Shown one piece after another: positions 14,209-36,919 of a stretch of 64,000 nt of DNA. Each line of letters begins with the position of its first letter. Position 1 is the first letter of the stretch. Below the pieces are notes generated by a model that had not been told where the DNA came from, made no database searches, and was given only the letters and a program-made list of their open reading frames with translations. Source of the DNA: Candidatus Marinacidobacterales bacterium (lineage in GTDB: Bacteria > Acidobacteriota > Vicinamibacteria > Marinacidobacterales > DATDRI01); contig OZ245365.1 of NCBI GenBank assembly GCA_965226495.1, positions 2,432,001 through 2,496,000 on the forward strand. Reading direction: 5' to 3'. A program made the translations under genes and the position numbers.

Positions 14209-14367
14209 GGTGCGACTCCCTTACGTGCGCCTGTGAAAGGCTTTCTTTGTGTTGGATCCGCGACTATGCGGATTGTTTCTGCGATTGAGCCGAGAGGCAC
14301 AGCCTCGCCAGGAACATTATACATGCGTCCGCGCTAAGGACTGAGACGCGCGTTGGCCGGGCCTGGA

Positions 14368-16149: not shown

Positions 16150-16224
16150 GTCGCTCGACTCGTCGCCGCGGCTTGAGGTTCCCTTGGACAGCGAGTACGC
16201 TTAACGGACGTCGGGAGGCCAGCC

Positions 16225-16401
16225 ATGATGACAATTCCCGTGGTCGCCGCCCTGATCGCGGTGGCCGCTGGCGCGCGAATCGTCGAGGAGATGACGCCGG
16301 AGGCAATCGACGAAGCGATTCGGGAAGGCAAGAAGTCGTACTACTCGGTGGAATGCGACGTCGAGTTGGATCCGGAATACGCCCTGGCCTGGGGATGGTG
16401 A
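16225..16401 (+). CDS. short hypothetical ORF, possibly a chimeric remnant
   Basis: GGGAGG RBS; MMTIPVVAALIAVAAG signal-like start; ends in TPR-like ELDPEYALAW. Confidence 0.35.
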   Translation: MMTIPVVAALIAVAAGARIVEEMTPEAIDEAIREGKKSYYSVECDVELDPEYALAWGW

Positions 16402-16534
16402 TCCTAATTCGACTATGGAGGAGGGGTAGAACTATTTGTTTGAAATATTGACCCGAAAGAGATGTTGCAAGAGTCACGAAGCAGCGGAGGTGTCATAAGC
16501 TTGCCCGTCTGAACCTGCCTAAAAGGACCGTAAA

Positions 16535-18163: not shown

Positions 18164-18327
18164 GATCTTCAGGGAGATCTGTTTGCTCCGGTGGCGGATG
18201 AGCGGTTCGACGTGGTGCTCTTCAACCCCCCTTACTTTCGTGGCGAGCCGAGGGATCTCAGCGATCACGCGTGGCGGAGCGCGACCTCATCAATGAGATC
18301 CTATGTTTGCACCGAGCGTGGCGCTAG
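18164..18327 (+). pseudogene. HemK2/MTQ2-like methyltransferase remnant
   Basis: GDLFAPVADERFDVVLFNPPY motif, then an out-of-frame RDLINEILCL tail; no N-terminus. Confidence 0.65.
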
Positions 18328-18360
18328 AAGGCTGTACCAACGAAGTGGGTACCACCTCGT

Positions 18361-19617
18361 TTACCTCTCCCCCGACCGCGGGGGAGAGGTCGTCCGCCGA
18401 AGGCGGGCGGGTGAGGGGGCTAGTGCATAGCGGCGATGAAGTCCAGTATCGATTTCATTGTTACAATCCACTAGAGCCCGCGCCTCGCCTTGGCTCGAAA
18501 GCTCCGTGTAGACCAAGCCCAGCCGTTCGACGGTATCCCGAAGCGAGTAGTCTTGCTCCACCCGCAAGCGTGCCGCCTCACCCATCGCCCGGAGTCTGTC
18601 GCGATCGGGCAGCAAGCGTCGTAGGGCTTGAGCAAGGGCGTCGACGTCGCCCACCGGGAGGGCCACCGAAGCTGGCTCTAGGTCCGGTACGACTCCGACC
18701 CTCGTGCCGATAGTGGCGCGTCCGCAGGCGGCGGCCTCTTGCGTCACCCATTCCTGTCCTTCGTGAAGGGAGCTCATCACACAAAGATCGGCGGCCCGGT
18801 AGTAAGCAGGGAGATGGTGGTGGGGCACGGCGCCGTGAAAGTGCACCCTCGCCCGAATCCCTAGCGCGCTCGCGAGCCGCTCGAGAGTGTCTCGCAACGG
18901 GCCTTCCCCGACGAGGTGGAGCACCGCGTCCGGGATGCTCGGAGTGACTTTCTCAAAAGCCCGGAGCAATGACTCCTGACCTTTGACCGGCACCAGAGAG
19001 GCCACGTGAAGGAGCTTGATGCCACCTTCGAGGGGTGAAGGCTCACCCGCTTTCGAAGCCGGGTGGAAGCGTTCGAGATCGACACCAATGGGAAGCCACG
19101 TCGTTCTGGCCGCACAAGGCTTAGCCAGCCGAGCCAAATGACTCGAGCCCACGCTCACCAGGCTCGCCCGTTCGAGGGCGACTTTCGCCAGGCGTCGATT
19201 AATGCGGCTAAGCCCCCCTCCGTAGCCGATCTCGGGATAAGAGACGAGCTCACCACCGAGGAGGGTGACGAGGGATGGAACGCCAAGCCATCGACCGGCT
19301 TGCACCGCCACCCACCCGGGCTCGTCCGCCCAGAAGGCATGCAGAACGTCGAAGGGACGGCGTCGGTGCTCGCGGCCCAGTGTTGCGAGGGCACGCGCGA
19401 GGAGCGGGAACTTCCGAAGGCCTTCGACCCGAGCCCCGCCGAGGGCATGAACCTCGGCTCCAAAGACGGAGTAGCGTTTCCGTTCGTACGGATAGCGCAG
19501 GGAGACAACGCGGACCCGATGTCGCTCACCGAGACGACGGATCAGGCTCGCGAGCGCCGGAATGCACCAGTCCTCTTCGCTGGCGCTGAAACCGGGAAGG
19601 ACCACTCCTACGTTCAT
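18361..19617 (-). CDS. glycosyltransferase family 4
   Basis: GT-B motifs PVKGQ, VGEGPLR, YRAADL..SS.HEG..EAAACG. Confidence 0.9.
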   Translation of the reverse strand: MNVGVVLPGFSASEEDWCIPALASLIRRLGERHRVRVVSLRYPYERKRYSVFGAEVHALGGARVEGLRKFPLLARALATLGREHRRRPFDVLHAFWADEPGWVAVQAGRWLGVPSLVTLLGGELVSYPEIGYGGGLSRINRRLAKVALERASLVSVGSSHLARLAKPCAARTTWLPIGVDLERFHPASKAGEPSPLEGGIKLLHVASLVPVKGQESLLRAFEKVTPSIPDAVLHLVGEGPLRDTLERLASALGIRARVHFHGAVPHHHLPAYYRAADLCVMSSLHEGQEWVTQEAAACGRATIGTRVGVVPDLEPASVALPVGDVDALAQALRRLLPDRDRLRAMGEAARLRVEQDYSLRDTVERLGLVYTELSSQGEARALVDCNNEIDTGLHRRYALAPSPARLRRTTSPPRSGER

Positions 19618-19626
19618 CTCTGATTG

Positions 19627-21105
19627 TCAAAAACCGCTCGTCTCGGGGCGCCGGTAGGAGACGAGCTTGTGGAGGGCGCGAAGCTCGAGGGGATGATGGT
19701 AGAAGCGGAGGTGATAGCGCCAGGCGCTCACACTCCGCAACAGCCAGCGTTTCGGGCCGCCGAGATGCTTGTCGGTGGCGGTGGGGTAATAGGCATTGAG
19801 CACACTCTCGAAATTCCAGACCTTCCGACGAAGCGAGCTTCGAAGCCAAGGCATGCGGAGACTTCGCCGCCCTGAAAACTCTACCCACTTCGGAGAGACC
19901 CACTCCTCTAACGTCTTTGGAAAGCCGAATCCCTGCTCTCGTGCCTCGTCGTACAACTCCCCGGAAAGGGGCACCGGAGTGTAGAGGTAGAGGACGATCT
20001 CTGCCCGGGGATTTACTTTCTTGAGACGAAGGATGAACTGCATCGTCTGCTCGGCATCCGCCTCGGGCTCGGGTGGATTGCCCAACATGAAGGAGAACTC
20101 GGGAACGATGTCGAGCTCGGCCATCTTTTGCGCAATCTCGAGGGTTTTCTCCGCGCTAGCGCTTCCACCCTTGTTCATGCGACGAAGCACTTCGTCCGAG
20201 CCCGACTCGGCTCCCAGAAAAACCATGCGCAGCCCGCTTTCGCGCATCAGACGCCACGAGCGTCCGGAGTAACGGAGCAAGGTATCGATGCGTGCCTCTC
20301 CCCACCAACCGATACCCAGGTCCAAGATCCGCTCGGCGAATTCCGCCGTTCGCGCCTCGTCCACGAAGAAGTTGTTGTCGTAGAACTCCACCGCATCCGC
20401 ACCAAGCTCTCGGACGAGTCTTCGAGTGACCCTAGCGGTTCGTTCCGCCGATTGCGCGAGCCAACGTCCCTCCACCATGTTGACGACGGCGCAGAAGTTG
20501 CACGTAAAGGGGCAGCCGTAGCTCGAGTGGTGGGGTAGCGTACGTTGGCCCATGAAGGTAGGCCGGATGTAGCGCTCCATCGGAACCCGATGATAGGGAA
20601 AGTCGGGGAGCTCTTCGGGAGAGGGGACTTCCGGAAGGGGACTCACGTGGAGACTCCCATCCGTTTCGACAAAGGCCAGTCCGGGAATTTTGGGGAGACG
20701 TTCTTCATCCCCCTCGTCCAAGGCCTCGAGCAACTGGGGGAAAGCAAGCTCCGCGTGTCCACGAACAACGTAGTCGACGACGGAAGAGCGCAAACAGACC
20801 TCGTAGTGCTGAGTTGGAAAATAGCCGCCCCAGACGATCACCAAGTGCGGGTGCTCCTTCTTGAGCGCCCTGGCTAGAGGGAAGGCTCGAGTCAGTTGCG
20901 GCCCCGGCATGACGGTCATAGCCAAAACGGTACGTTCCTCTTTACGAATGAGCTCATCGAGGACCCTGAATGGATCGGACTCCAAGTTGCCATCCACGAC
21001 ACGATATTCGCGCGTGCCCTCGAGCACCGCGCCGAGGGCGAGAAGCGACATGGGAACAACGGGTTTCTTCGTCGCGCTACTCGGCGGGTTGTAAAGAAGC
21101 AACAT
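19627..21105 (-). CDS. cobalamin-binding radical SAM protein
   Basis: N-terminal B12-binding domain (WGGYFPT, VVRGHAE); CPFTCNFC; DNNF; GAESGS. Confidence 0.92.
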   Translation of the reverse strand: MLLLYNPPSSATKKPVVPMSLLALGAVLEGTREYRVVDGNLESDPFRVLDELIRKEERTVLAMTVMPGPQLTRAFPLARALKKEHPHLVIVWGGYFPTQHYEVCLRSSVVDYVVRGHAELAFPQLLEALDEGDEERLPKIPGLAFVETDGSLHVSPLPEVPSPEELPDFPYHRVPMERYIRPTFMGQRTLPHHSSYGCPFTCNFCAVVNMVEGRWLAQSAERTARVTRRLVRELGADAVEFYDNNFFVDEARTAEFAERILDLGIGWWGEARIDTLLRYSGRSWRLMRESGLRMVFLGAESGSDEVLRRMNKGGSASAEKTLEIAQKMAELDIVPEFSFMLGNPPEPEADAEQTMQFILRLKKVNPRAEIVLYLYTPVPLSGELYDEAREQGFGFPKTLEEWVSPKWVEFSGRRSLRMPWLRSSLRRKVWNFESVLNAYYPTATDKHLGGPKRWLLRSVSAWRYHLRFYHHPLELRALHKLVSYRRPETSGF

Positions 21106-21109
21106 GTTC

Positions 21110-22471
21110 TCAGCTCACGCTCTCGGCGGCCAAGCTCTCTCCGCCGAGGGGATTCGGCGAGTGCCATGCCGCTCGACAGCGCTTGAAGATGACGAACCCG
21201 GGAATGAGCGTCAGAACGACGAGAGCAAGAAAACCGCCGGTCATGCCCAGAGCGCCGTAGTGTCTTCCCAGAAGGCTCAAGAAAACAACCGCCGTCCCGG
21301 CCTCAATGACGGACAGAATCAAGAAGGGCTCTTTCTTGTGAGCCCGCAAGTAGCTTCCGAAGGCAAAGCGCAGTTGCTGCAGGATGACGGCCAACAGAAG
21401 GAGGCCGGTCTCGAGTGGCGGCAAGAAGCGAAAAGCCAGAGGAATTCCGAAAAAACGCCCGGCATAGAGTGCCATCCAATAACCGCCGGCGCCCAGAGTG
21501 ACAACCAGAAGGGAGATGAGCGTGGCGCGCCAGAAAACGTCGTCCAGAGTTCGGTAGTGGCGTCGCGCGGCGGCCATCGCGAAGGTCGGCACCTTCGTCG
21601 CCACCACCGCAAAGGCGACCGAAGAGATGCCGGCGGCGACGGAGAGGGTCATTCCCATCTGGCCGGCCACACTCGGGCCATGAAAGGCAAACAGGACCGG
21701 TGTAAAGAGGGAGAAAACGAAATAGCCGCCCAACCAGCTTACGGCGAACTTCCATTGGAGTGGCCACACCTCTTGCTTCCACGAGATGGCTGTCTCTTGA
21801 GCCTCCCCCCATTCGCGCCAGAGCTTCCGAAAGAATCCGAGCTCCTCGCGGGTGAGTCCCCAAACTCCCATGAGAACCGTGGCGACTCTCGCAATGGGGA
21901 CGGCCCAGAGACCACCACCCGCCAAAATAGCGAGCCAGCTCGCCCATCGGCTTACAACGGCTTGGCCCAATCGAAGGCGATACACTTCGTGGACTCGATT
22001 GATGCCCTCCAGAATGCTGAGAAGGGGGGTCAGCAAAACGCTCGCTCCCGTGGCCAGACAGGCCGCCCACCAAACGAGCTGCCAACGCATAGGGGATGCG
22101 CTCCCGGCGGAAAAGGTCTCGAAGTACAGACTTCCGCCGATGCCGAGCGCGAGGAAGAGGATGACGGCAACGGCCCGGTACCAACGAAGGGCGAGGCGGG
22201 AAAGACTCGCGAGACGGGCTTCGGCCCGCCGCCGTACGTCGGGCGAGCCTTCCGAATCGATGCGAGCCCACTCGTGGCTCGCGAACTGTTGGACCACGCT
22301 GCCGAAGCCGAGCTCGACAAGCGTTTCCAAGGTGAGCAAGCTCGCGAAGGTGTAATAGTAGCCTTGAAGCTCCGGAGAAAAGAAACCTCCCACCAAAAAA
22401 ATTGTGACGAGCCCCGCGGCGCTCCCCCACACTCGATTCGCCATGGCATAGAGAGTGGCTTTCCCGAACAT
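21110..22471 (-). CDS. Wzx-like polysaccharide flippase
   Basis: about 12 hydrophobic segments; QGYYYTF..ELGF motif; glycan-cluster context. Confidence 0.75.
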   Translation of the reverse strand: MFGKATLYAMANRVWGSAAGLVTIFLVGGFFSPELQGYYYTFASLLTLETLVELGFGSVVQQFASHEWARIDSEGSPDVRRRAEARLASLSRLALRWYRAVAVILFLALGIGGSLYFETFSAGSASPMRWQLVWWAACLATGASVLLTPLLSILEGINRVHEVYRLRLGQAVVSRWASWLAILAGGGLWAVPIARVATVLMGVWGLTREELGFFRKLWREWGEAQETAISWKQEVWPLQWKFAVSWLGGYFVFSLFTPVLFAFHGPSVAGQMGMTLSVAAGISSVAFAVVATKVPTFAMAAARRHYRTLDDVFWRATLISLLVVTLGAGGYWMALYAGRFFGIPLAFRFLPPLETGLLLLAVILQQLRFAFGSYLRAHKKEPFLILSVIEAGTAVVFLSLLGRHYGALGMTGGFLALVVLTLIPGFVIFKRCRAAWHSPNPLGGESLAAESVS

Positions 22472-23538
22472 CAGTTACCTTCGGAGTCGGGGCGGAGGAG
22501 AGAGAATGCCATCTCTGCCACGGGTCTCGGTTCGTAGCGAGTCAAGCAGTGCACGTCTCCGTAACGGCAAGTCGCTTCCATGCAAGAGCCACACGAGAGA
22601 TCGCCGGAATGAAGGCAGAGGGTGCGCTCGCCGAGGGGCCGCGACCAGTCACCGCGGCTCGAGCCGAACAAAGCCAACGTCGGCACTCCCGACACCCAGG
22701 CCATGTGCATAAGGCCGGAGTCCTCCGAGAGTACCAGGTCGGCCTTCTGCACGATGGAGAAGGCTTCGTCGGGCGTCGTTCGTGCTACCAGGTTGAGAGC
22801 TCGCCCGGCGAGCGCGCCCTCGATGAAGGAGGCCTTCGCTTTCATGGTGTCGAGACCGAGAAGTAGAAACTGTGTGGGAGTGGAGTCGAGAGACTCCCAC
22901 GCCCGAGCAAAGTCCACCCAGCTCTGAAGCGGCCAGTTTCTGGTGGCAAAGGCCCCCGCCGGATTCAGCACCACCAGGCGGTGGTCTTCGCGCCAACCCG
23001 CTTCCTCAAGCACTCTCAGCGCCGCTTCTGCCCCGCGGGTGGGCAGATCCGTATTCAGTCGAACCGGACCGAGTCCCGCGGCTTCGATGGTGTGTCGGGT
23101 CCGCTCGCCGGCCGATCGCGGGCTCGTCTTGTCGAAGCGGCTCCAAGCGTGAGGGCGCAGGCATCTCGTGACAAACCGACTGATCTCGTTGTTCTGGAGA
23201 TCGAGTACGACATCGTAGCGCGACCGAAGCAACTGCGGAAGCAGGCGGGCGCTCGCAAACCATTGTCTTTTGAAATTCCTCCCTCCGCCGATGGTACGAA
23301 CCCGTTCGAAAAGCTCCAGGTTTTTCGGGATGGCTCCCGTCTCTTCTCGCGTGAGCAGATCGATGGCCGTCTGCGGATAAAGACGCTTGAGATCGTTGAG
23401 ATAAGGGAGTGTGATAGTCACGTCCCCCAAGGCCTGGAGGCGGATGGCCAAGATGTGGCGAGGCGGCTGCGAGGCCGTCCAGGCCCGGGCGGGGATGCTC
23501 GCATCTTCTATTAGCGGCATCAGCGCCTTGGGCGACAT
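22471..23538 (-). CDS. glycosyltransferase family 9 (heptosyltransferase-like)
   Basis: IRLQALGDV, NPAG..RNWP, DSGLMHMA and LFGSS motifs; C-terminal Cys cluster. Confidence 0.9.
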   Translation of the reverse strand: MSPKALMPLIEDASIPARAWTASQPPRHILAIRLQALGDVTITLPYLNDLKRLYPQTAIDLLTREETGAIPKNLELFERVRTIGGGRNFKRQWFASARLLPQLLRSRYDVVLDLQNNEISRFVTRCLRPHAWSRFDKTSPRSAGERTRHTIEAAGLGPVRLNTDLPTRGAEAALRVLEEAGWREDHRLVVLNPAGAFATRNWPLQSWVDFARAWESLDSTPTQFLLLGLDTMKAKASFIEGALAGRALNLVARTTPDEAFSIVQKADLVLSEDSGLMHMAWVSGVPTLALFGSSRGDWSRPLGERTLCLHSGDLSCGSCMEATCRYGDVHCLTRYEPRPVAEMAFSLLRPDSEGN

Positions 23539-24365
23539 CAGCGCCGCCTCATCTGCAGCATGTAGTGGTCGCCGAAGTAGCGAAAGGGCCAGACGTCGCT
23601 AATCATTCGCTCCGCCCGTCCGAGTGAACGGAGGAGACGTCTTCCGTACCGCCTCGACTCGATGGCCCTGGACCAAAGGGAAGACGACCACAGGGAAGAC
23701 GGTAGCACCAACCCCAAAGCGCTCACGCGCTCCAGCCGGAAGAAAGGGGCGAACACTTTCATGAGCTCGGACGGCCAGGGGTAGGTGACACGAACCCGCT
23801 CGTCCCCCACGCGGGCCAACGTGCCATCTTTACTTAGACGCCGAACCGCCCGCTTTGGCTCGCCACGAAGCAGATGGTAACTGAGATCCCAGAGGCAAGC
23901 CGGTCCCATGACGACAAGGAGCACCGGGGCATCGGGGCGCATCCAGCGTCCGAGCGCGTCGGCGAGGGGCTCGAGGTCACGGACGCAGTTGAGACCGCCG
24001 AAGTTGGAGAAAGCGCCATCGAAGCTCGCTGGATGAAAAGGCCCCTCCGGCGCTTCGAGGTTGAGCTCGGCAAAACGAATCTCCGCCGCCTCCGCGCCAA
24101 GCTGTGCGCTCGCTTTGTCCTCGGCCCTTTGGAGCATGCGCGGGGATCCGTCGGTGGCGGTGACAAGAACACCTTGGGCTGCCAGCCAACAGGCGTCTTC
24201 GCCGGTTCCACAGTTGAGCTCGAGGACGTGGCTGCCACCGGTGAACAGAAGGGAAAGCCGCTCCCATACGAGCCCGCGGAGCTCGCGGCCGAGACTGGTG
24301 TTGGTGAAGGTCTGGTCGTAGCTCGCCGCCATTTTGTCGAACGCGGAGGTTCCCGTCGCGATCAA
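23538..24365 (-). CDS. class I SAM-dependent methyltransferase
   Basis: VLELNCGTGED and FDGAFSNFGGLNC motifs; TTG start overlaps the upstream stop (the ORF track starts at 24509). Confidence 0.88.
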   Translation of the reverse strand: MIATGTSAFDKMAASYDQTFTNTSLGRELRGLVWERLSLLFTGGSHVLELNCGTGEDACWLAAQGVLVTATDGSPRMLQRAEDKASAQLGAEAAEIRFAELNLEAPEGPFHPASFDGAFSNFGGLNCVRDLEPLADALGRWMRPDAPVLLVVMGPACLWDLSYHLLRGEPKRAVRRLSKDGTLARVGDERVRVTYPWPSELMKVFAPFFRLERVSALGLVLPSSLWSSSLWSRAIESRRYGRRLLRSLGRAERMISDVWPFRYFGDHYMLQMRRR

Positions 24366-25765: not shown

Positions 25766-25770
25766 ACCGA

Positions 25771-26820: not shown

Positions 26821-28526
26821 GACGTAGCCTCAACGTGAATGAGGGCGGCAGAGCTGCCCAGCAGGATCCAGAAAGCCAGATAGATAGATGTAGATTCTAG
26901 AAGGTAGTCGAACACCCCGTGAATCAAGAAACCCGCTAGCGAGCACGACACGACCAGGGCGACAAGAGCGACAGAATTGACAGGGGACTCCGCGCTCGAA
27001 ACCACCACGCGACGAAGCCCCCAAAGCGCGCTCGCTACCAACGAGAAAAAAATCACCGCCCCCACGAGGCCTGTCGTTGCCAAAGTTTCCAGATAAAGGC
27101 TGTTCGAAAACGTCCGTGTATCCCAAGTGCTTCTCCCCGCTGCGGGTCCGTAGGACCAACGGAAGTTGTCCGGTCCGATACCGAGGATGGGGTTGTCTTT
27201 GAAAAGGGTGAGGGCAAGACCCCAGAGCTCCCATCGGCCGGGTCGCCAGGCTTCTCGAGCGAGACGATCTCTCACATCCTCGGGACGGGGCAGCTCGGAA
27301 AAGCCGTCTTCTTCACCGACGAGTACCCTCACCGGGCTGCCGAGCCCCGCTTTGTCCGAGAACCAGAGCTTGTCGGCGTGCACCATGTCCCAGATCAAAA
27401 TGTATCGCCCCCGCCCGGCCGATACGCTCACCGAGGCGCGCACAACGACCGTCTCATCTGGTGCGACGGCTCTCGGGAGCGGCGTCCTCTCGCCTTCGAT
27501 GGGTAGCGGATCGAGAGAGCCGTCCTCCTTGGCGACGAACCAGCGGTAGGAAAGGTAAACGGGCTCGTCCCCTTCGGATCCCCAGGTGGTCTTCCCCGTG
27601 TTTCGAACGCCGACCATCGTGGTCGCGAGTCCGCCGGGCTCCAGTTCGAGCTCCTGCTCGACGGGTTGGAGCGACGCGCGGTACCAACCTCCGTCTCCTT
27701 CGCTCGCTGCGCGCCAGCGAAAGGTGGGCACATCGAAGGTCACGATCAGGGCAAGTAGGAGGAACGCGATTTCGAAGCGGCCGATGCGTCCCGTTGCTGG
27801 GTGTCCCCGTCGCCAAAGCCAGAGCCATAACAGCGCCGTCGCTCCCAACGCGCCCAGGAGGGCTCCCCGCGAGTAGGTGAACAGTATCGCCGTGAACATG
27901 ATGAGAGCGGTCGCCGAGGCGAGGGCGATCGAACGACGGGAGGCATTGTCTCTTGCCACGAAGAACAGTGCCGCGGGAAGGGTGAGCACGAGAAAGCCGG
28001 CAGCGGTGTTGGGGTAGGGGAAGGTCGCGGCAATGCGAGCCGTTCCTCCCACTTCGAAGTTGTGCTCCCGGAAGGGAGCGAGGAGCGCCTCTATGCTCGG
28101 CAAGGAGACGACCTCCAGCAGGCCCACCGATGCGGTGAAGAGTCCCGCCGCAGCGAAACTGCCGAGGAGAAGTGAAGCCGCGCTCATTCTAGTCGAGCGC
28201 ACAAGGGCCCAGGCGGTGAGGGCAAAGGCGGCGACGCCGGCAGCGACCCGAAGAGTGGCCTTTAAGGGGAGGGAACGCGGTGGCTCGGCCCAGTAGGTCG
28301 ACAGAAGACAGGCGACCAAAAAGGCGACGGCAAACCCCATTAGGGGCATGGCGATTTTCAGACCGCCGGCTCGCGGGAAAAGAAGCAGACCTGCGGTAAC
28401 CGCGAAGAGGATTGCCGCCGAAAACTCGAGGAAGCTGAGCTCGAAGCCCAGGATCGCGAAGAGTGGACTCATCGGCTCAAAGGGCAGAAGGAGGACGAGC
28501 AAACAGATCGAGGTGAGCGCTGCCAT
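26817..28526 (-). CDS. O-antigen ligase/Wzy_C-like membrane protein with an inserted Ig-like (NBR1-like) domain
   Basis: TFPYPN..AG, TYSRGA, PILGIGPDNF and GFLIHGVFDY motifs; soluble insert RNTGKTTW..LSYRW..WDMV; ATG 28526 overlaps the upstream stop. Confidence 0.85.
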   Translation of the reverse strand: MAALTSICLLVLLLPFEPMSPLFAILGFELSFLEFSAAILFAVTAGLLLFPRAGGLKIAMPLMGFAVAFLVACLLSTYWAEPPRSLPLKATLRVAAGVAAFALTAWALVRSTRMSAASLLLGSFAAAGLFTASVGLLEVVSLPSIEALLAPFREHNFEVGGTARIAATFPYPNTAAGFLVLTLPAALFFVARDNASRRSIALASATALIMFTAILFTYSRGALLGALGATALLWLWLWRRGHPATGRIGRFEIAFLLLALIVTFDVPTFRWRAASEGDGGWYRASLQPVEQELELEPGGLATTMVGVRNTGKTTWGSEGDEPVYLSYRWFVAKEDGSLDPLPIEGERTPLPRAVAPDETVVVRASVSVSAGRGRYILIWDMVHADKLWFSDKAGLGSPVRVLVGEEDGFSELPRPEDVRDRLAREAWRPGRWELWGLALTLFKDNPILGIGPDNFRWSYGPAAGRSTWDTRTFSNSLYLETLATTGLVGAVIFFSLVASALWGLRRVVVSSAESPVNSVALVALVVSCSLAGFLIHGVFDYLLESTSIYLAFWILLGSSAALIHVEATS

Positions 28527-31500
28527 TACTTCTTCTCGGCGATGAAGACCGGGAACCTGGCCGGAGTATGGAGGCCCCTCATCCAACAATAGGTCCTTCG
28601 GAGCGTGCGCGTCACCCCTTCGAAGGGTATCTGCCATCGTGCTCGGAAGCCAGTGCGCTCCAATAGAGTCGAGAACTCCTCGAAGACGAGGAAGCCCGCG
28701 TGGGTCCGGTCGAGGTCGAGGGCGTAGCGTTTCTGGCACTCGCGCTCCTGTCTTCTCACCATGGCCAGACCGGCCGCTTCGTCTTCGTAGGTGGGGCTGT
28801 CCAGTATGAGAAAGAGACCCCCAGGGCGCAGCAGGCGGTAGGCTTCTTGAACGGGGCGGGATAATCTTTCCGCATAATGAATGGAGCCGTTGGCAACGAC
28901 GAGGTCGAACTGCGCGCCTTCGAGAGCAAGCGCCTCCATGTCCGCGCGAGCCCGCGTCACCCGAGCCCGCCACGGTAGGCCGTTGCTCCCGTAGCGATCG
29001 AGAGCCCCGAGCCCGTCCTCTTCGTCCAGTGAGATGTCCGTGGCGAGGACGAAGTGTCCTTTTTCCGCCATGCGGCGGGAGAGCCAACCGTTGCCGGCGC
29101 CGAGCTCCAGGATCCTCGAGGCCCTCTTGTCACACTCGTCGGCCTTCTTCACCTCGGGGAAGTGTGATTCGATGGTTTGCATCGCAAGGGAATAACTGCG
29201 CGCTCTGAGCCTCCAAATGGAGCGGTGGCGTCCACTGTGATCCTTGAAAGGTAAGTCCCGGTAGTACTCTTCGGCACCACCCCAGCCTTCGGCGCGGCGG
29301 AGCTTGCGGTAAGTTTGCAGAAAAGGAGTGAGCTCGCGTCTTCTCTTTTCGCGAAGGAGGGGTAGGATCCCGTTTTCTCCTTCGAAACGCCGGCCCTCGA
29401 CAGGACAGTGGAGATCGGCCCCCGCGGTGAAGGCGGAGGCTCCACACTCTGGGCAGAGAAGCTGCCACGTGACCTTGCCGTTTCCCTCGCGCGCGGGTTC
29501 CTCAACCTGCGACGCGGGTTCGCTATCCGGCCGCTCACGGGCGAGCATCGTCTCGATCTGTCCGGCGAGCTCCTCTCCGTGATCCTTGAAATGGAGCTTG
29601 ATGGCATTACTCGTGAGCCTCACCGAATTGGGGCTACCGGCTCGCGCACATTGTCGGTGCCAGTGGGTGCCAAGAACGAGGCGGCCCATTTTCTCCATCA
29701 ACCAGCCACCGCCCAGGGAAAGGAGTCCCTCGAGAAGGAAGGACCCCGCTTCGGGCTCTTCCTCTGGGATCGGCTCGAGCTCACGGAAGCTCTCCCAGAA
29801 GTTGGCAAAAACGTTGGCTCCCCAATCGTTGGCGCGCACGAAACGGTAGTAGGTCGTCCGTCCGGCCAGGGGACGTAGGCTCAGGATTTGATTCGCGGTG
29901 AAGGGATCTCGGTCCGGAAGCGCCAAGCCGTCTTCCCCGAGCACGTAGTTCAGGCAAATCGTGCGCCGGAGTCCGAGGGCCTTCATGCACAGGAAGAGAA
30001 AGAAGCTCACCGCCCAGGTTCTGCCTTTGGCCGTTATCAGAAACAGATCGATGTCTCCGTCGGAGGCGTTCCGGTGTGCCGTGGCTCCCGAAAGGGCGAC
30101 CATACGCACGAAGGGCGTCTTCCGAATGAGTGTGAGGATGCGCCGGTGCCTGGTCAGAAGTTCTTCGGTCAATTGCTCGTTCGTGCGCCGCTTCTGAACC
30201 GTATGTCCCTTGCCCTTCAAGAAATAGAAAGGCGGCGAGCTTTCCACATGCCTCCGAACGTCGGGATGGGACTCGAGAAGTCCTGCGAGCTCCTGCCGAG
30301 GGAGGGGGACGCCCATCAGAGCCCGACGGATCTCCGAAAACTTCATCGGGTAATCGAAACGCGTCCCATAGGAAATGGTGTCCACCACCGCCCGCGCCTT
30401 GCGAGCGGTCGAGTGATCTTCGTTTCCCTTCCCGACGCCGCGCACCGTGGAGCGCTCGAGGGCCTCCTCGTACACGGCGATGGTCTCCCGCGCCGTTCGC
30501 TCCCAGGAAAAGGAGCGGGCACGCGCCAGACCCGCGGCCACCCGCCGCTCCCGTTCGCCGGCGTCGGAGAGACCGTGCTCCATGGCCTCCTTCATCCCGT
30601 CGACGTCGACGGGGTCGACGAGGAGCGCCGCCCCGGCGGTGATTTCCGTGAGCGAGGACGTGTTCGATGTGAGGACGGGAACGCCGCTGGCCATCGCCTC
30701 GAGCACCGGGAGCCCGAAGCCCTCATAGAGTGAGGGGTAGACGAAGAGCTCCGCATGGGAGTAGAGCGCCGGAAGATCCTCTTCCTCCACGTAGCCAAGC
30801 CGGCGCACGCGGTCTCGGAGACCGAGCTTCTCGATGGCCTGAAGAAGTTGAGGTGCGTGCCAACCCAGATCGCCCGCCAGATAGAACCGATAGTCGGAAA
30901 AGCGGGGCGCGAGTCGAGAAAAGGCGGTGAGGGTGCGCACTAGATTCTTCCTCGGCTCGAGGGTTCCCACATAGAGGATGTAGGGCTTCTGCAACCGATA
31001 ACGCCGGGCGATCGTCTCAAAGCTGCTCGCGTCGGTGCGCGGCCGGAACTGAGTGTCGGCGGCGTGAGGAATGACGCGGATCTTGCTCTTCGGGAGCTTG
31101 TACAAACGAGCCAGATCGTCCCGCGCCGATTGCGAGGGAGTAATGATGAGACGCGCCTTTCTTGCAATCGTGGGCATGAGACTCGACGTCAGGGCCCGCT
31201 TGCGCCAAGGATGGAACTTGGCCATGAGCTGCAGCGTCATGTCGTGAAAGGTGACGACGAAGGGAGTCTCGCCGAGCGCGGGGGCCAGAAAGTTCGTGAA
31301 GTGGCAGAGGTCGGGCCGGGACGCCTTGAGGAGGAGTGGCAGAAGGCTCTGCATCCAGACGCTCCGCAAGGGAAACTGACTCCCTTGTGGTTGGTGCGTC
31401 CGCGGAATCGAGCTCATGGCCACCGGCCGGTTAGAGAGAAGGAGAACCTCGTCGATGGGGTTTGCTGGACCGTCGACTTCGGTGAGTCGCTCGAGAAGGC

Positions 31501-31567
31501 GCCACGTGTAGTACCCGACGCCAGTCTTGTTCCCTCGGAGTGTCGTGGCGTCGAACCCCAGTAGCAT
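28526..31567 (-). CDS. fusion protein: GT4 glycosyltransferase + Pol-beta-like nucleotidyltransferase + SAM methyltransferase
   Basis: GTLEPRKN and EGFGLPVLEAM (GT4); VALSGATAH..DGDIDLF (NTase); CPEC; ILELGAGNGW (MTase); one 1013-aa frame. Confidence 0.85.
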   Translation of the reverse strand: MLLGFDATTLRGNKTGVGYYTWRLLERLTEVDGPANPIDEVLLLSNRPVAMSSIPRTHQPQGSQFPLRSVWMQSLLPLLLKASRPDLCHFTNFLAPALGETPFVVTFHDMTLQLMAKFHPWRKRALTSSLMPTIARKARLIITPSQSARDDLARLYKLPKSKIRVIPHAADTQFRPRTDASSFETIARRYRLQKPYILYVGTLEPRKNLVRTLTAFSRLAPRFSDYRFYLAGDLGWHAPQLLQAIEKLGLRDRVRRLGYVEEEDLPALYSHAELFVYPSLYEGFGLPVLEAMASGVPVLTSNTSSLTEITAGAALLVDPVDVDGMKEAMEHGLSDAGERERRVAAGLARARSFSWERTARETIAVYEEALERSTVRGVGKGNEDHSTARKARAVVDTISYGTRFDYPMKFSEIRRALMGVPLPRQELAGLLESHPDVRRHVESSPPFYFLKGKGHTVQKRRTNEQLTEELLTRHRRILTLIRKTPFVRMVALSGATAHRNASDGDIDLFLITAKGRTWAVSFFLFLCMKALGLRRTICLNYVLGEDGLALPDRDPFTANQILSLRPLAGRTTYYRFVRANDWGANVFANFWESFRELEPIPEEEPEAGSFLLEGLLSLGGGWLMEKMGRLVLGTHWHRQCARAGSPNSVRLTSNAIKLHFKDHGEELAGQIETMLARERPDSEPASQVEEPAREGNGKVTWQLLCPECGASAFTAGADLHCPVEGRRFEGENGILPLLREKRRRELTPFLQTYRKLRRAEGWGGAEEYYRDLPFKDHSGRHRSIWRLRARSYSLAMQTIESHFPEVKKADECDKRASRILELGAGNGWLSRRMAEKGHFVLATDISLDEEDGLGALDRYGSNGLPWRARVTRARADMEALALEGAQFDLVVANGSIHYAERLSRPVQEAYRLLRPGGLFLILDSPTYEDEAAGLAMVRRQERECQKRYALDLDRTHAGFLVFEEFSTLLERTGFRARWQIPFEGVTRTLRRTYCWMRGLHTPARFPVFIAEKK

Positions 31568-31582
31568 GTCGAAGGTCCTTCC

Positions 31583-33064
31583 TCAGAGTGGCCCTTGCTC
31601 CGCAGAACGTTCCGTGCTGTGGGGGTCGTCGGTAGGCGAGAGGGGCGAGCCGCGAAGCATTCCGCATCGGTAGGCCGCCACTATCAACGACCCATAGATG
31701 ATTATCCCCGCGGGAAGCTTTAGAGGCAAGGGGGCGTCTAAGTGGAGAATCGAGATCGCCATGATCAAACTCGCCGCCAAAGATGAAGCAACGACACCCG
31801 CCATGACGGATAAGGGAAAGAGTCGACGATGGGGGAGGAGAGTGACGAGGGCGAGGCTCCATTCGGCGCCGGCGACCGCACCGGCGGCGCCCACCGCGCC
31901 GTATCGTGGAATGAGAACGAGGTCGAGCAGAATACCGACCGTGAGACGGACGGTCATGCAACCCACCAGGTAGCGCATTCGCCCGGAGACGATAAGCAGA
32001 TGGGTCGTCAGGGCGTTCATGAAGACTGCGACCAGGGCGACGGCCAGAAAGGTGAGCGGCCGTGCTGCCTCGGTGAAACCTTCCCCGAAAAGAAAGCCGA
32101 TGATGGGCCCGGCGAGCGCGAAAAGACCGGTGGCCGCGGGTATGGCGACAAGCAGGAGAATCGTCAGCACGAAACGACTCAAGGAAGGGAAGCCCCTCTG
32201 TCCGAAGCGAGCGGCGAGAAGGGGAAAGCTGCCGGCGACGATGCCACCAGAGAGGACGAACATCGCTTCGAAGAGGCGAAAGGCGCTCGCAAATATCCCG
32301 GCATCGGTGGCACCGCGAAGAGCCGCCAGAATCAAAAGATCCGCTCTCAGATAGACGATGGTGATGGCCGCGCTGACGGCGAGAGGTAGGCTCGCCTGGT
32401 AAAGTCCTCTCACTTCCAGCCAATCGGGGCGGAACGAGGTTCGCCTCCAGGCCTTCGCCATCCAAGCGAGCGCCAACCAGAGCCCGGGTGCGGCTCCGAG
32501 GACGAGGGCGAGGGCGATGCCTTCGAGCCCGGCGTTGCCGCGAATGGCGATCAGAGCACCCGCCAGCAGGCCCAGGCGGAGTACGGTGAGGACGATTCCC
32601 TCTCGAGCGATGCGACCACGGCTGCGAAGGATCACCCCGAAGAGCTCGATCCAAGAGACAAGGAGCGACACTGCCAGTAGGAGCCACAGCAATCGGACGT
32701 TCGTCGAGAGAATCGGTGACGCGGAAACAGCCGCGAACCCACCAATGAGTAAAGCCGAGACGAGCGCTTTAGCTGCCACAGCGCTCGCGACGACTCGCGG
32801 CTCCCACGTTTTCGCGAGCGAGCGGAGCGTCACGATGTGCAGTCCCAGATCCGTCACCTGTGCGAGCATCCAGGCGACGTACCAGGCGACCGCGTAGATG
32901 CCGTAACCTTGAGCGCCTAGGTTTCTCGCCAGCAAGATGGAGAGCAGTAGGGTTAACGAGCGGGACGCGACATCCCAGAAGACTTTCCCGATGCTAGCGG
33001 TAAAAGCGTTTCGCAGAAGATTTGATGTATCTGCCTCGCCGGTGCCTGCGGTGGTGTCCGGCAT
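31583..33064 (-). CDS. Wzx/MATE-like oligosaccharide flippase
   Basis: LARNLGAQGYG, DLG, YLRADLLIL and LIPRYGAVGAA motifs; many TM helices. Confidence 0.88.
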   Translation of the reverse strand: MPDTTAGTGEADTSNLLRNAFTASIGKVFWDVASRSLTLLLSILLARNLGAQGYGIYAVAWYVAWMLAQVTDLGLHIVTLRSLAKTWEPRVVASAVAAKALVSALLIGGFAAVSASPILSTNVRLLWLLLAVSLLVSWIELFGVILRSRGRIAREGIVLTVLRLGLLAGALIAIRGNAGLEGIALALVLGAAPGLWLALAWMAKAWRRTSFRPDWLEVRGLYQASLPLAVSAAITIVYLRADLLILAALRGATDAGIFASAFRLFEAMFVLSGGIVAGSFPLLAARFGQRGFPSLSRFVLTILLLVAIPAATGLFALAGPIIGFLFGEGFTEAARPLTFLAVALVAVFMNALTTHLLIVSGRMRYLVGCMTVRLTVGILLDLVLIPRYGAVGAAGAVAGAEWSLALVTLLPHRRLFPLSVMAGVVASSLAASLIMAISILHLDAPLPLKLPAGIIIYGSLIVAAYRCGMLRGSPLSPTDDPHSTERSAEQGPL

Positions 33065-33117
33065 CTTGGTGCTTCGGAGAGGGAAGTGCCAACTTGCCTG
33101 CCTCATCGAGCCGCGGG

Positions 33118-34581
33118 TTAGGCCGCCCGAAGAGCCGGGTTTTCTCGACGGGATAGGACCTTCAAGCGCAAACGTCCGGTGGCGAGCCCCAGGGCGTGCC
33201 GCACGACCCTCAGCAAGCTCGCCGGACTACGACAGTTGGCTAGCTCTTTCCTCAAGCGGAACTCGCGGTGCATGACCGAGTACAGCGTAGGATAGAACTC
33301 CGGCACATAGGTGCCGCGAAACATTAGCTCGAGGTCGTCGCTATGGGACCAGTTGGTCTTTGCCCCCAGCTCCTCCTTAACGCGATCGTAGAACGGGGTA
33401 CCCGGAAGAGGATAGCTGATGGAGATCCCGATATCGTCGGGACGAGCCTCCCGCACCAAATCGAGCGTCTTTTCGATATCGGACCAGTCCTCACCCGGGT
33501 AGCCAAATTGCAGGAAGTAACAAATGCGGATGCCCCGGGCACGCAGCAGTCGCGTGGCTTGGAAGATCTGCTCGACGCTGGTGCCCTTTTCCATGGCGTC
33601 TAGAATTTTTTGGGAACCGCTTTCCGCACCGACCCAAACGCTCTCGCACCCGGCGCTTGCCAGAGCCCGCGCCGTTTTCTCGTTGATGAGATCCACCCGG
33701 GCCTGGATCTTGAACGGCGTCGCGCAATCGAGCGCCTCGACTTCGGAGGCGAACTCCTCCACCCATTTGGGATGGAGACCGAAGATGTCGTCAGCGAACC
33801 AAATTTGATCCGGCTTGACCTCGCGCTTCAGCCACGCCATCTCTTGCGCGACGTTCGCGGGCGATCGCATGTTGTAGCGTTGTCCGTAAATGGGCTTCGC
33901 GCACCAGTTGCAGTGGTACGGGCAGCCCCTGGTGGTCACCATGCTGACGGAGAAATAATCGTGTCGTTTCAGCCAGGCGCGACGGTACCGAGTAACGTCC
34001 ACCAGATCCCAGGCGGGGAAGGGAAGTGCGTCCAGGGTCTTGATGAAACCCCGCGCTGGAGTTTTCAGAATACCGCCGTCCCGACCGAGAAAGGCGAGTC
34101 CGTGGACCTGGTTGATTCCCGTCGTTTTGCCACCATTCGCGAGCTCGCTCGCCAGCTCGGCCAAGGTTTCTTCCCCCTCTCCCAAAAGGGCGAAATCGAT
34201 ATGGGCGCCGAGGTATTGTTCAAGATGATCGGTGGCGTCGGAGCCGTTCACCACCACCCAAGCCCCTGCCTTCTTGGCCAAACGCGCCTTTTCCAGTGCG
34301 GCTTCGCGCATGTTGGTGAGGCACATCTTCGAGAGATAGTTGAAGTTGTCTTCGTAGATGGCAACGAGATCGGGACGGAACCGCTCGAGATCCGACTGGT
34401 ACTCGCGGTGGCCGGAGGCCAGCATCGAATCCGAGAGAAACACCTCGTGCCCGGATTCGCGGAGGAAAGACGCCGCGTAGAGGGTCCCCAAAGGCGGGTA
34501 AGGCTCTAGAATCTTCGCTTGTTTCGGGTCGAGCTCGAGCTGATAGGCCGGCGAGAAGAGGACCCTCATGCTAAATGCCAT
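33118..34581 (-). CDS. cobalamin-binding radical SAM protein
   Basis: PPLGTLYAA, GEGEET, RGCPYHCNWC, DDIF and GAESGS motifs; start 34581 or 34569. Confidence 0.92.
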   Translation of the reverse strand: MAFSMRVLFSPAYQLELDPKQAKILEPYPPLGTLYAASFLRESGHEVFLSDSMLASGHREYQSDLERFRPDLVAIYEDNFNYLSKMCLTNMREAALEKARLAKKAGAWVVVNGSDATDHLEQYLGAHIDFALLGEGEETLAELASELANGGKTTGINQVHGLAFLGRDGGILKTPARGFIKTLDALPFPAWDLVDVTRYRRAWLKRHDYFSVSMVTTRGCPYHCNWCAKPIYGQRYNMRSPANVAQEMAWLKREVKPDQIWFADDIFGLHPKWVEEFASEVEALDCATPFKIQARVDLINEKTARALASAGCESVWVGAESGSQKILDAMEKGTSVEQIFQATRLLRARGIRICYFLQFGYPGEDWSDIEKTLDLVREARPDDIGISISYPLPGTPFYDRVKEELGAKTNWSHSDDLELMFRGTYVPEFYPTLYSVMHREFRLRKELANCRSPASLLRVVRHALGLATGRLRLKVLSRRENPALRAA

Positions 34582-36565: not shown

Positions 36566-36919
36566 CTAGCAGTGTTCGGGCTCGATATCGAAGATCAGGG
36601 CGATGGCCTTCTTGACGCGGTCTAGCTCTTCACCACTCAGGGTTCCGAGTTTCTTGATGAAGCAGCCATGGCTGAGGGCTCTGATTTGAAAACAATCTAC
36701 CGCGGACTTCTTCCTAAGGCCGTGTCTTGGCCCGGGCGTTATGGTGAGAAAGAAGGGATTCTTCTCCCAGCGTTGCCTCCATGCGGTTACCGGCACGACG
36801 ATAGCCAGAGGAAGGTTCTTCGCGTGACCGGGATTGAGTATGACCACCGGCCGAGATTTCTGGATCTCATCCCCAATCGTTGGGTCGAGATTTGCCTGGT
36901 ATAGGTCACCGGTCCTCAA
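36566..36919 (-). CDS. mazF: MazF/PemK family toxin
   Basis: GDLY..LDPTIGDEIQKSRPVVI..VVPVT..DCFQIRAL. Confidence 0.9.
   Translation of the reverse strand: MRTGDLYQANLDPTIGDEIQKSRPVVILNPGHAKNLPLAIVVPVTAWRQRWEKNPFFLTITPGPRHGLRKKSAVDCFQIRALSHGCFIKKLGTLSGEELDRVKKAIALIFDIEPEHC

Follow-up and report, generated by a model that had tools for sequence, protein, structure and literature searches.

The window examined here is a stretch of 64,000 nucleotides (positions 2432001-2496000 of a single 6.34-Mb contig) from a Candidatus Marinacidobacterales bacterium, a soil-type member of the Acidobacteriota, and it contains an operon in which genes for the assembly and export of a lipid-linked glycan are combined with genes for four radical S-adenosylmethionine (SAM) enzymes, three of which (rSAM1, rSAM2 and rSAM3) carry a cobalamin (B12)-binding domain. 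We consider it probable that this operon is a member of a widespread set of uncharacterised clusters, in which a modular tailoring cassette is built into the assembly and export machinery of a lipid-linked surface glycan. The core module of the cassette would consist of rSAM1 and a nucleotidyltransferase-like domain (hereafter X); the second module would consist of rSAM2 and a class I methyltransferase, here together with a SPASM-type radical SAM enzyme; and the third would consist of rSAM3, which in relatives is accompanied by an MTS methyltransferase that is broken in the window. This reading rests on what the operon encodes, on how tightly its genes are coupled, on the modular conservation of the cluster and on the association of X and rSAM1 with genes of glycan assembly.

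Organization of the operon

The operon comprises 11 intact, co-oriented open reading frames (ORFs) on the minus strand (18361-34581), which run head to tail from rSAM1 to the glycosyltransferase gene GT4b (Table 1). Domains were assigned with the curated cut-offs of Pfam and NCBIfam, and start codons were refined from orthologue alignments and start-codon context. With the refined starts, the ten junctions from rSAM1 to GT4b were +11, +15, -1, -4, +5, -4, -1, -1, +4 and +9 bp. Stop and start codons overlap as TAATG between the triple fusion gene and the Wzy_C gene (-1), as GTGA between the Wzy_C and SPASM-type radical SAM genes (-4), and as TTGA between rSAM2 and the methyltransferase gene MT (-4). 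The MT start is the TTG at 24365, which overlaps the rSAM2 stop codon and is preceded by GGAG. Alignments of rSAM1 orthologues begin at residue 48-52 of the ORF, which runs to 34722.

Pfam matches were found for ten of the 11 proteins, the exception being Wzx2, which had only an NCBIfam match below the cut-off; among the NCBIfam families listed, including BchE, HpnJ, HpnR and PhpK, none of the 11 proteins reached a curated cut-off. An earlier note made on this DNA had described the 11-gene order, the shared strand and the tight junctions. Pfam returned the same order, with junctions of -4 to +15 bp, and the scores to PF04055 and PF02310 supported the further claim of four radical SAM genes, three of them with a B12-binding domain. 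Scans of the operon for promoters and terminators gave counts at the level of shuffled sequences (3 vs 2.5 and 19 vs 16.1), and Rfam gave zero matches across the whole window.

Table 1. Genes of the operon, in order of transcription, and the adjacent gene relic (window coordinates).
Feature	Coordinates	Strand	Evidence
rSAM1, B12-binding radical SAM, first gene	33118-34581	-	PF02310 46.6 bits, PF04055 81.7 bits; ORF open to 34722
Wzx1, MOP-family flippase	31583-33106	-	PF01943 Polysacc_synt 51.7 bits (cut-off 28.2)
GT4-X-MT triple fusion, 1013 aa	28526-31567	-	Pfam GT4 116.7 bits, Methyltransf_11 53.5 bits
Wzy_C membrane protein	26817-28526	-	PF04932 57.8 bits (cut-off 31.7)
SPASM-type radical SAM	25771-26820	-	PF04055 71.9 bits; PF13186 21.2 bits (cut-off 21.5)
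rSAM2, B12-binding radical SAM	24362-25765	-	PF02310 82.4 bits, PF04055 78.3 bits
MT, class I SAM methyltransferase, partner of rSAM2	23538-24365	-	Methyltransf_25 44.8 bits
GT9, heptosyltransferase-like	22471-23538	-	PF01075 75.4 bits (cut-off 22)
Wzx2, flippase-like membrane protein	21110-22471	-	NF041503 'O-unit flippase-like' 91 bits (cut-off 300)
rSAM3, B12-binding radical SAM, optional module	19627-21105	-	PF02310 52.4 bits, PF04055 53.3 bits
GT4b, family 4 glycosyltransferase, last gene	18361-19617	-	PF00534 101.5 bits
MTS/HemK-type methyltransferase relic, 37 aa	18170-18280	+	tblastn

The genes for glycan assembly and export encode two flippase-type proteins, a Wzy_C protein and glycosyltransferases of families 4 (GT4) and 9 (GT9). 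Wzx1 contains approximately 13 hydrophobic segments and matches Polysacc_synt above the cut-off. Wzx2 contains approximately 10 such segments and has no Pfam match; its match to NF041503 (E 8e-26) covers positions 4-406 of the 429 in the profile and lies below the cut-off. The Wzy_C protein has hydrophobic segments at 1-264 and 486-565 and a soluble insert of approximately 220 aa, and is predicted to be of the polymerase, ligase or O-oligosaccharyltransferase type, which are activities that sequence cannot separate. GT9 scored below the cut-offs of the heptosyltransferase equivalogs (TIGR02193, 87 vs 185; TIGR02195, 86 vs 135; TIGR02201, 64 vs 170). The last ~38 residues of GT4b have no counterpart in orthologues, as the full-length orthologue alignments, obtained for four of five relatives, stop at query residue 370-380.

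Conservation of the cluster within the order

Orthologues of rSAM1 with 61-70% identity were found in 9 of the 17 genomes of the sister family, and the window's own family, searched in seven genomes including the unpublished G007, had none (best E 1e-41). In five of the nine genomes with an orthologue (G034, G022, G028, G030 and G024), the cluster was collinear: rSAM1 was followed by Wzx1, GT4-X, the methyltransferase, a gap the size of a ligase gene, and then GT9, Wzx2 and GT4b. The gap was confirmed to hold a Wzy_C gene in G034 and G030. Two further genomes, G032 and G038, were collinear as far as the contig end, and G008 and G016 contained rSAM1 without the rest of the cluster. Collinearity was kept although the proteins were only 47-70% identical, and its presence in other genomes of the order indicates that the arrangement did not arise by chance.

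The radical SAM modules, on the other hand, varied among these clusters. rSAM3 was present in four of the six complete clusters (the window, G034, G022 and G028) and absent from G030 and G024; in G028, rSAM3 and a SPASM-like gene followed GT4b, rather than rSAM3 preceding it. The block of SPASM, rSAM2 and methyltransferase genes was found in the window and G034 only. The operon is accessory and patchily distributed, because rSAM1 occurs in the sister family and in none of the own-family genomes, and because synteny with the same-genus genome G002 breaks before the operon.

Some of the relatives also contained split genes. rSAM1 was split into two frames in G016 (L018/L050) and G028 (L014), and the GT9 and GT4b genes of G028 were each matched in two pieces, which is due either to degeneration of the cluster or to erroneous indels in the assembled sequences.

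Conservation of the cluster beyond the order

A profile of rSAM1 was run on reference contigs representing one genome per species, which gave at least 599 pattern matches and at least 558 confirmed relatives, mostly from Chloroflexota; the best 80, which all come from records of the metagenome-assembled genome (MAG) type, were kept. The database names of these relatives are generic, such as 'B12-binding domain-containing radical SAM protein', 'YgiQ' and 'BchE-like cyclase'. Identity to the rSAM1 of the window was 51-59%, with a mean column identity of 67% over 30 sequences; for relatives from Chloroflexota, a range of 52-58% was obtained. A tree was built from 77 of the best 80 sequences, the window and four sequences of the same order; three sequences were dropped, as their match was split or shorter than 400 aa, and the tree was rooted on rSAM2. 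The ingroup contained 66 Chloroflexota, 2 Thermomicrobiota, 6 Acidobacteriota, 2 Bacteroidota and 1 unnamed sequence. The clade of the window (8 rows, support 99) was placed beside, and not within, a clade dominated by Chloroflexota (73 rows, support 98), with long branches meeting at the root.

The neighbourhoods of the best 80 loci were searched with the proteins of the window using tblastn (E <=1e-8). Matches were found for X in 58 loci, the class I methyltransferase in 33, rSAM2 in 30, rSAM3 in 24, the GT4 domain in 23, GT4b in 13, the Wzy_C protein in 12, the SPASM enzyme in 8, and the Wzx1, GT9 and Wzx2 of the window in 4, 3 and 1, respectively. The three GT9 matches comprised two acidobacterial loci and one labelled Bacteroidota (24% identity), and none labelled Chloroflexota. 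rSAM2 orthologues (55-61% identical) lay <=3.5 kb downstream of rSAM1 in 29 of the 30 loci having one, and in 13 of 27 loci the methyltransferase followed rSAM2 at a distance of <=1 kb. The rSAM3 relatives from Chloroflexota were 56-67% identical.

Because the export genes were too diverged for tblastn, hidden Markov models (HMMs) were built from Pfam-verified seeds and applied to the 39 loci in which rSAM1 was flanked by >=8 kb on either side. Wzx was found in 21 of these loci, Wzy_C in 18, GT4 in 23 and GT2 in 10; 30 loci had at least one glycan-assembly gene, and 22 had genes of more than one class. With the same HMMs, the whole 6.34-Mb genome of the window contained 6 Wzx, 7 Wzy_C, 44 GT4 and 13 GT2 genes, from which a random 20-kb stretch would hold Wzx or Wzy_C only approximately 2% of the time. 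Additionally, Pfam scans of five Chloroflexota loci chosen as rich in tblastn matches revealed Wzx, Wzy_C, GT4, GT2 or PMT genes in all five. Eight of the loci poorest in tblastn matches were picked and seven were scanned; two of the seven had a divergent Wzx gene beside rSAM1, and one had X, GT4, a methyltransferase and another B12-binding radical SAM gene. Among 18 acidobacterial loci outside the order, GT4, Wzx or Wzy_C was found by HMM in 10. The co-occurrence of radical SAM, glycosyltransferase and flippase genes in other genomes, on which the earlier note had made its reading depend, was therefore found, and it extends to Wzy_C.

In 50 of 76 loci, tblastn placed X directly upstream of rSAM1, co-oriented with it and ending at a distance of <=700 bp; 3 further loci were cut by contig ends. 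In Chloroflexota, X is a free-standing gene of approximately 300 aa, and its stop codon often overlaps the rSAM1 start. Among 300 other Acidobacteriota, rSAM1 and X occurred together in 19 genomes, rSAM1 alone in 11, X alone in 6 and neither in 264, an odds ratio of 76 at thresholds of E <=1e-120 for rSAM1 and E <=1e-15 for X; as related genomes are not independent, the p-value overstates this association.

We also observed that peptidoglycan-related genes (VanW with PG_binding_4, LysM, Peptidase_M23, SH3_3 and MurJ) recur <=10 kb from rSAM1 in the Chloroflexota loci L096, L027, L036, L044, L063, L081 and L023. These neighbours may represent conserved local synteny or be a sign of a wall-associated product.

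Triple fusion protein and structural model of the X domain

X lies within a 1013-aa triple fusion, in which GT4 is encoded at approximately 30428-31567, X at approximately 29453-30415, and a Cys4 ribbon with a class I methyltransferase at approximately 28526-29407. In the protein, the GT4 and methyltransferase matches cover residues 55-343 and 813-975, and residues ~380-800 are blank in Pfam; the ~320 residues between the two domains gave no Pfam match even at E 0.01. The fusion had 31 database relatives, of which 29 were GT4-X proteins of 619-711 aa, with the database name 'glycosyltransferase involved in cell wall biosynthesis'; the other two were a 100%-identical copy of 1009 aa and a 625-aa form from a close relative. 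The methyltransferase was encoded in a frame separate from GT4-X in all six relatives having both parts, which indicates that the triple fusion is particular to the genome of the window.

The earlier note had called the middle domain a nucleotidyltransferase (NTase). Pfam does not see such a domain, and the proposal is supported by a fold model and a conserved motif. The AlphaFold model of X (predicted local distance difference test score, pLDDT, 86.4; predicted template modelling score, pTM, 0.82) was divided into a winged helix (residues 1-72), a nucleotidyltransferase core (82-198) and a helical C-terminal part. The best match of the core in VIA-align was ANT(4') (6NLT), with a Z-score of 7.7 and a root mean square deviation (rmsd) of 3.1 over 109 residues, and the best Foldseek matches were MNT antitoxins (MntA; prob 0.99, E 0.013, TM 0.22-0.47), values that lie at a level the tool itself calls common. 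A profile search of X against PDB sequences returned MNT alone (E 0.08), and PF01909 was present in just 11-25% of the members of related Atlas clusters. From the model, X is likely to combine a winged helix with a nucleotidyltransferase fold. An alignment of 30 X sequences revealed the invariant residues G110, D121, D123, W134, C154 and N156, among others, and the hG[GS]...DxD motif was present, with G110, D121 and D123 found in 30 of 30 sequences. No relationship between X and an NTP_transf_5 protein was found (hhalign probability 0.07).

X belongs to a large family. An exhaustive profile search of cluster representatives returned 7,111 at E <=0.001 and 3,510 at E <=1e-30. Five long forms were found among the top 150 relatives of X, and in each of them X was joined to a glycan enzyme (GT2-X, GT4-X twice, X-GT4 and Wzy_C-X).

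Radical SAM enzymes

The translations of rSAM1, rSAM2 and rSAM3 contain the CxxxCxxC motifs CPYHCNWC, CPYHCDWC and CPFTCNFC, respectively, and all three enzymes exceed the cut-offs for the radical SAM core (PF04055, 29.5 bits) and the cobalamin-binding domain (PF02310, 32.1 bits). rSAM2 is 38% identical to rSAM1. The C-terminus of the SPASM enzyme is Cys-rich and SPASM/twitch-like, with a PF13186 score marginally under the cut-off; two relatives from Chloroflexota (34-39% identical) scored 51.8 bits for this domain.

All scores of rSAM1, rSAM2 and rSAM3 to the curated NCBIfam families were below the cut-offs: BchE, 147, 145 and 120 bits against 481; HpnJ, 145, 135 and 98 against 578; HpnR, 99, 109 and 55 against 650; PhpK, 111, 109 and 69 against 600; and TIGR04072 (lipid biosynthesis B12-binding radical SAM), 122, 122 and 55 against 360. 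The earlier note had stated that its reading would be refuted if these enzymes clustered with HpnP/HpnR or BchE/Q/R; they fell into none of HpnP, HpnR, HpnJ, BchE and the other curated families, with best scores of ~145 bits against cut-offs of 480-650.

Among solved structures, the best match of both rSAM1 (88.5 bits) and rSAM2 (64.1 bits) was 9CCB, a distant relative. This entry is described as QCMT/MgmA, a glutamine C-methyltransferase acting on methyl-coenzyme M reductase, in a review (PMC12931638) and in PMC11796369. AprD4 (PDB 6FD2), the diol dehydratase of aminoglycoside 3'-deoxygenation, was the best match of rSAM3 (50.9 bits) and the second-best match of rSAM1 and rSAM2; it has a B12-binding-type domain, yet its activity is that of a dehydratase. 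The best match of the SPASM enzyme was the cytosylglucuronate decarboxylase BlsE (PDB 7VOB, 62.5 bits). The corresponding NCBIfam scores were low (AprD4, 60-73 bits against 500; BlsE, 60 bits against 400). Methylation is the commonest activity of the B12-radical SAM class, and C-methylation by the three B12 enzymes is likely rather than established; sugar dehydration or decarboxylation is a possible alternative chemistry.

The genome of the window contains 13 B12-radical SAM-like genes and a single cobalamin riboswitch (G000:C1:1225523-1225734, 96.6 bits). No match to CobD/CbiB, the sole cobalamin-biosynthesis family checked, was found in this 94.8%-complete genome. The presence of the riboswitch together with the absence of this one biosynthesis family suggests that the cell probably imports corrinoid, on which the 13 enzymes would depend.

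Proposed pathway and alternative explanations

In the order of steps that we infer, GT4, GT4b and GT9 would assemble an oligosaccharide on a lipid acceptor on the cytoplasmic side of the membrane, where the radical SAM enzymes and methyltransferases would modify it; this tailoring site is proposed because the enzymes need SAM and a low-potential reductant. The three B12 enzymes would most likely methylate unactivated carbons, and the SPASM enzyme would most likely carry out a BlsE-like sugar redox or decarboxylation reaction. X would nucleotidylate the sugar or transfer a phospho group onto it, or in this lineage might merely dock the substrate. The two Wzx-type flippases would then transport the lipid-linked product, or two such products, across the inner membrane, and the Wzy_C protein would polymerise the product or ligate it to its final acceptor (lipopolysaccharide (LPS) core, protein or polymer). 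Support for a link to sugars comes from AprD4 and BlsE, which modify carbohydrates and to which rSAM3 and the SPASM enzyme, respectively, are closest among solved structures. As the radical SAM modules come and go among relatives, their distribution suggests that they create structural variants of the glycan. The interpretation in the earlier note, namely a surface glycan or glycolipid with iterative C-methylation or a branched sugar, stands as far as an uncharacterised pathway with radical SAM tailoring is concerned, which is supported by context; the iterative C-methylation and the branched sugar are not shown.

Several observations weigh against a surface glycan tailored in this way. By Pfam, the 11 operon proteins include no initiating phosphoglycosyltransferase, no Wzz/chain-length regulator and no outer-membrane (OPX) exporter, so the operon is incomplete as a classical Wzx/Wzy system; without a phosphoglycosyltransferase, the first step would be encoded elsewhere, or the acceptor would not be undecaprenyl phosphate. 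X may also be non-catalytic in the lineage of the window. Residue 176 is Q in the window and in six of six same-order relatives and E in 28 of the 29 other aligned X proteins, and two near-invariant arginines are lost in the window's lineage; E176 is taken, by position, to be the third acidic residue of the nucleotidyltransferase, which is an assumption. For rSAM1 and rSAM2, the closest solved structure is that of a peptide methyltransferase, 9CCB. No glycan gene was found by HMM within 10 kb of rSAM1 in 9 of the 39 full-flank loci, and among the seven loci poorest in tblastn matches, one had X only, one had rSAM2 only and two had nothing glycan-related. Eight of the 18 out-of-order acidobacterial loci lacked GT4, Wzx and Wzy_C by HMM, although one of them (L109) has GT1 and GT87 by Pfam. 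Four of the 18 loci (L107, L108, L112 and L114, from another family of Acidobacteriota) were compact 'batteries' of 3-5 B12-radical SAM genes, 2-3 methyltransferase genes, one of which is fused to an amidohydrolase gene, and a gene for a SPASM enzyme, with no glycan gene within ~9 kb; L108, which was the battery scanned by Pfam, also contained NTP_transf_5, HPr-kinase-like and NusG-like genes. The batteries may represent a different pathway built from the same enzyme families, and the distant acidobacterial rSAM1 copies (49-51% identity) may form a separate subfamily.

These observations were considered together with other explanations of the operon. A glycolipid or membrane-lipid pathway would have the GT4 enzymes glycosylate a diacylglycerol-type or other lipid and Wzx flip the glycolipid, with the B12 enzymes performing mid-chain methylation, C-C coupling or an HpnJ-like contraction of the head-group sugar. 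We regard this as unlikely. HpnJ (145 bits) and TIGR04072 (121 bits) are among the top NCBIfam matches, and the GT4 proteins have low scores to glycolipid synthases (GlcN-PG synthase, 60 bits; IagA/BgsA, 56 bits; MGlcDAG synthase, 36 bits), although the radical SAM and glycolipid scores alike lie far under the cut-offs of 360-578. The lack of an initiating phosphoglycosyltransferase in the operon and the battery-type loci without glycan genes fit a lipid product as well, but the Wzy_C protein, GT9 and the fusions of X to GT2, GT4 and Wzy_C speak for the assembly of an oligo- or polysaccharide, and neither the operon nor the Pfam-scanned loci contain an acyl, ACP or isoprenoid gene. General O-linked protein glycosylation, with the Wzy_C protein acting as a PglL-type oligosaccharyltransferase that places the tailored glycan on envelope proteins instead of LPS or a capsule, seems still less probable. 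The Wzy_C domain is common to PglL, WaaL and Wzy, whose three activities are inseparable by sequence. GT4 has weak matches to PglJ and PglH, a PMT_2/TMEM260-like GT-C lies beside the G034 cluster, and PMT-like genes occur in two Chloroflexota loci, but GT9 is typical of LPS inner-core enzymes. Protein glycosylation would in any case be a variant of the surface-glycan reading, with the same pathway and another acceptor, rather than an exclusive rival.

A pathway resembling those of ribosomally synthesized and post-translationally modified peptides (RiPPs), in which the B12 and SPASM enzymes would modify a ribosomal peptide that is then glycosylated and exported, is very improbable. It would agree with the peptide C-methyltransferase 9CCB as the best solved relative of rSAM1 and rSAM2, with the frequent role of SPASM enzymes as peptide maturases, and with NCBIfam scores to ApyD (110-128 bits) and the TIGR03975 RiPP methyltransferase (72-90 bits), but every RiPP family score is far below its cut-off. 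HPr-kinase-like and NTP_transf_5 genes, of a kind known from lasso-peptide clusters, occur in two related acidobacterial loci. With junctions of <=15 bp, however, a precursor gene could not fit within the operon, Pfam found no peptidase/protease, leader-binding or ABC export gene among the 11, and X is fused to GT2, GT4 and Wzy_C. It is scarcely credible that the radical SAM genes are unrelated passengers in the polysaccharide locus of a mobile island. The strain-specific region does contain transposases, toxin-antitoxin and defence genes, and rSAM1 stands alone in some relatives. Such a chance juxtaposition is nevertheless contradicted by the collinearity across genomes with proteins only 47-70% identical, by the HMM neighbourhoods, in which the association recurs across phyla, by the overlapping stop and start codons and the domain fusions, and by the matching phylogenetic profile of rSAM1 and X.

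Returning to the surface-glycan reading, we tentatively propose, as a possibility with somewhat less than even support, that X and rSAM1 with optional radical SAM modules constitute a cross-phylum pathway that installs an undescribed modification on a cell-surface glycan. If so, what is installed would be a sugar that is C-methylated, branched or carbocyclic, or else a substituent linked through a nucleotidyl or phospho group.

Comparison with known systems

The operon resembles Wzx/Wzy O-antigen, exopolysaccharide (EPS) and PglL-type loci in combining GT4 and GT9, MOP-type flippases and a Wzy_C protein in one operon. Unlike those loci, it has two flippases and lacks an initiating phosphoglycosyltransferase, Wzz and an outer-membrane exporter. 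To our knowledge, four radical SAM genes and a nucleotidyltransferase-like domain are not found in classical Wzx/Wzy loci.

The B12 enzymes share the N-terminal B12-binding domain and the CxxxCxxC core with class B radical SAM methyltransferases (QCMT/MgmA, TsrM, CysS, TokK and OxsB). The similarity to QCMT is only distant, and QCMT acts on a protein, whereas the context here is glycan assembly. AprD4 and BlsE are alike in being sugar-acting radical SAM enzymes, but they serve antibiotic pathways rather than surface-glycan loci, and the scores to them are low. HpnJ is a B12-type radical SAM enzyme that remodels a lipid-linked sugar, and the HpnI/HpnK/HpnJ pathway follows the same logic as the one proposed here; HpnJ and BchE were the top NCBIfam matches. 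However, with scores of 97-147 bits against cut-offs of 481-650, the enzymes of the operon are not members of these families, and the operon contains no hopanoid or chlorophyll genes. The closest functional precedents of which we are aware are the sugar C-methylating B12-radical SAM enzymes MoeK5 (moenomycin) and GenK/GenD1 (gentamicin), of which MoeK5 acts on a lipid-linked glycan. They belong to secondary-metabolite pathways with a single radical SAM enzyme each, and the likeness is one of function. X probably has its fold core in common with Pol-beta-type nucleotidyltransferases, represented by the kanamycin nucleotidyltransferase ANT(4') and the MNT antitoxins, and also carries the invariant G..DxD motif, but has its own N-terminal winged helix and C-terminal helical part and no Pfam match. 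Enzymes of the ANT group transfer adenylyl groups to the hydroxyls of sugars.

Radical SAM and cobalamin chemistry is familiar from antibiotics, cofactors, lipids and peptides. Full-text searches of the literature found no paper describing a cluster of this kind, and the terms polysaccharide, glycan, glycosyl, capsul- and lipid do not occur in a 2026 review of B12-radical SAM enzymes (PMC12931638). Judging from its genes, the operon appears to be a glycan locus of familiar type with an unprecedented radical SAM and nucleotidyltransferase tailoring cassette, and there is a substantial chance that the chemistry itself is of a new kind. A conserved cassette that ties three B12-radical SAM enzymes to Wzx, Wzy_C and glycosyltransferases in hundreds of genomes of Chloroflexota and Acidobacteriota would point to an unrecognised class of envelope glycan modification. 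If the proposed pathway is real, it would provide the first instance of cobalamin-dependent radical SAM chemistry in the biosynthesis of an envelope polysaccharide, and X would be a new glycan-modifying enzyme family of 7,111 cluster representatives for which Pfam has no model. The operon would thereby give a first functional handle on this large, unnamed nucleotidyltransferase-like family. Chloroflexota and Acidobacteriota are abundant in soil, sediment and wastewater and are hard to culture. The modular gain and loss of radical SAM units would offer a natural experiment on the glycans of carriers with one, two and three modules.

Genomic island and surrounding genes

The operon is located in what the sequence identifies as a strain-specific accessory island. 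Synteny with the same-genus genome G002 (95% identity over 8230-14258) ends at 14258, and the island that follows (~14300-54600, ~40 kb) includes the operon, two rve insertion sequences (39254-40531 and 43766-45373), MazF/PemK (36566-36919), ParD (37671-38126), AbiEii (41463-42488), and an SMC-like ATPase with GmrSD (46318-51106). The right border was not found, as the region 34700-64000 matches G002 only at insertion sequences and scattered genes. An anti-phage defence system was considered because of a PF20706 match and the island context, and was rejected; the PADLOC matches were weak or generic (radical SAM core to pVip, 51 bits; methyltransferase to mad2, 47-50 bits).

The 37-aa relic beyond the end of the operon matches residues 174-210 of an intact MTS methyltransferase (L096:12955-13785) with 81% identity. 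The earlier note had recorded a HemK-like relic at the end of the operon; the relic is real, but it lies on the plus strand, convergent to GT4b, and represents what is left of a gene that a relative still carries in full. In G034, the MTS methyltransferase gene is intact and likewise convergent to GT4b. The 5' part of the relic is replaced by a low-GC stretch (GC 0.508 at 16-18 kb, compared with ~0.6 around it), in which a sulfatase gene (16535-17929) is located, and Pfam identified a Y2 transposase at 15383-16477. It appears that an insertion carrying the sulfatase and transposase cut off the MTS methyltransferase gene on its 5' side. The flank of the G034 cluster (L100:7103-13007), on the strand convergent to the cluster, encodes the PMT_2/TMEM260-like GT-C with TPR repeats, followed by proteins of 404 and 812 aa without a Pfam match and then the intact MTS methyltransferase; these genes may be ancestral members of the cluster that were lost from the window.

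Two repeated segments were also observed. A stretch of ~820 bp at 6920-7740 (and 7748-7900) has dozens of copies with 80-81% identity in G002, G034 and G001, and covers two ORFs without a Pfam match, 7011-7631 (-) and 7039-7722 (+); it looks like a high-copy element common to two families of the order. A 91-bp segment at 45095-45185, beside an rve transposase gene, recurs at many sites of G001 and G002, which belong to the same genus, with 99-100% identity, and may be the end of an insertion sequence or a repeat resembling a miniature inverted-repeat transposable element (MITE).

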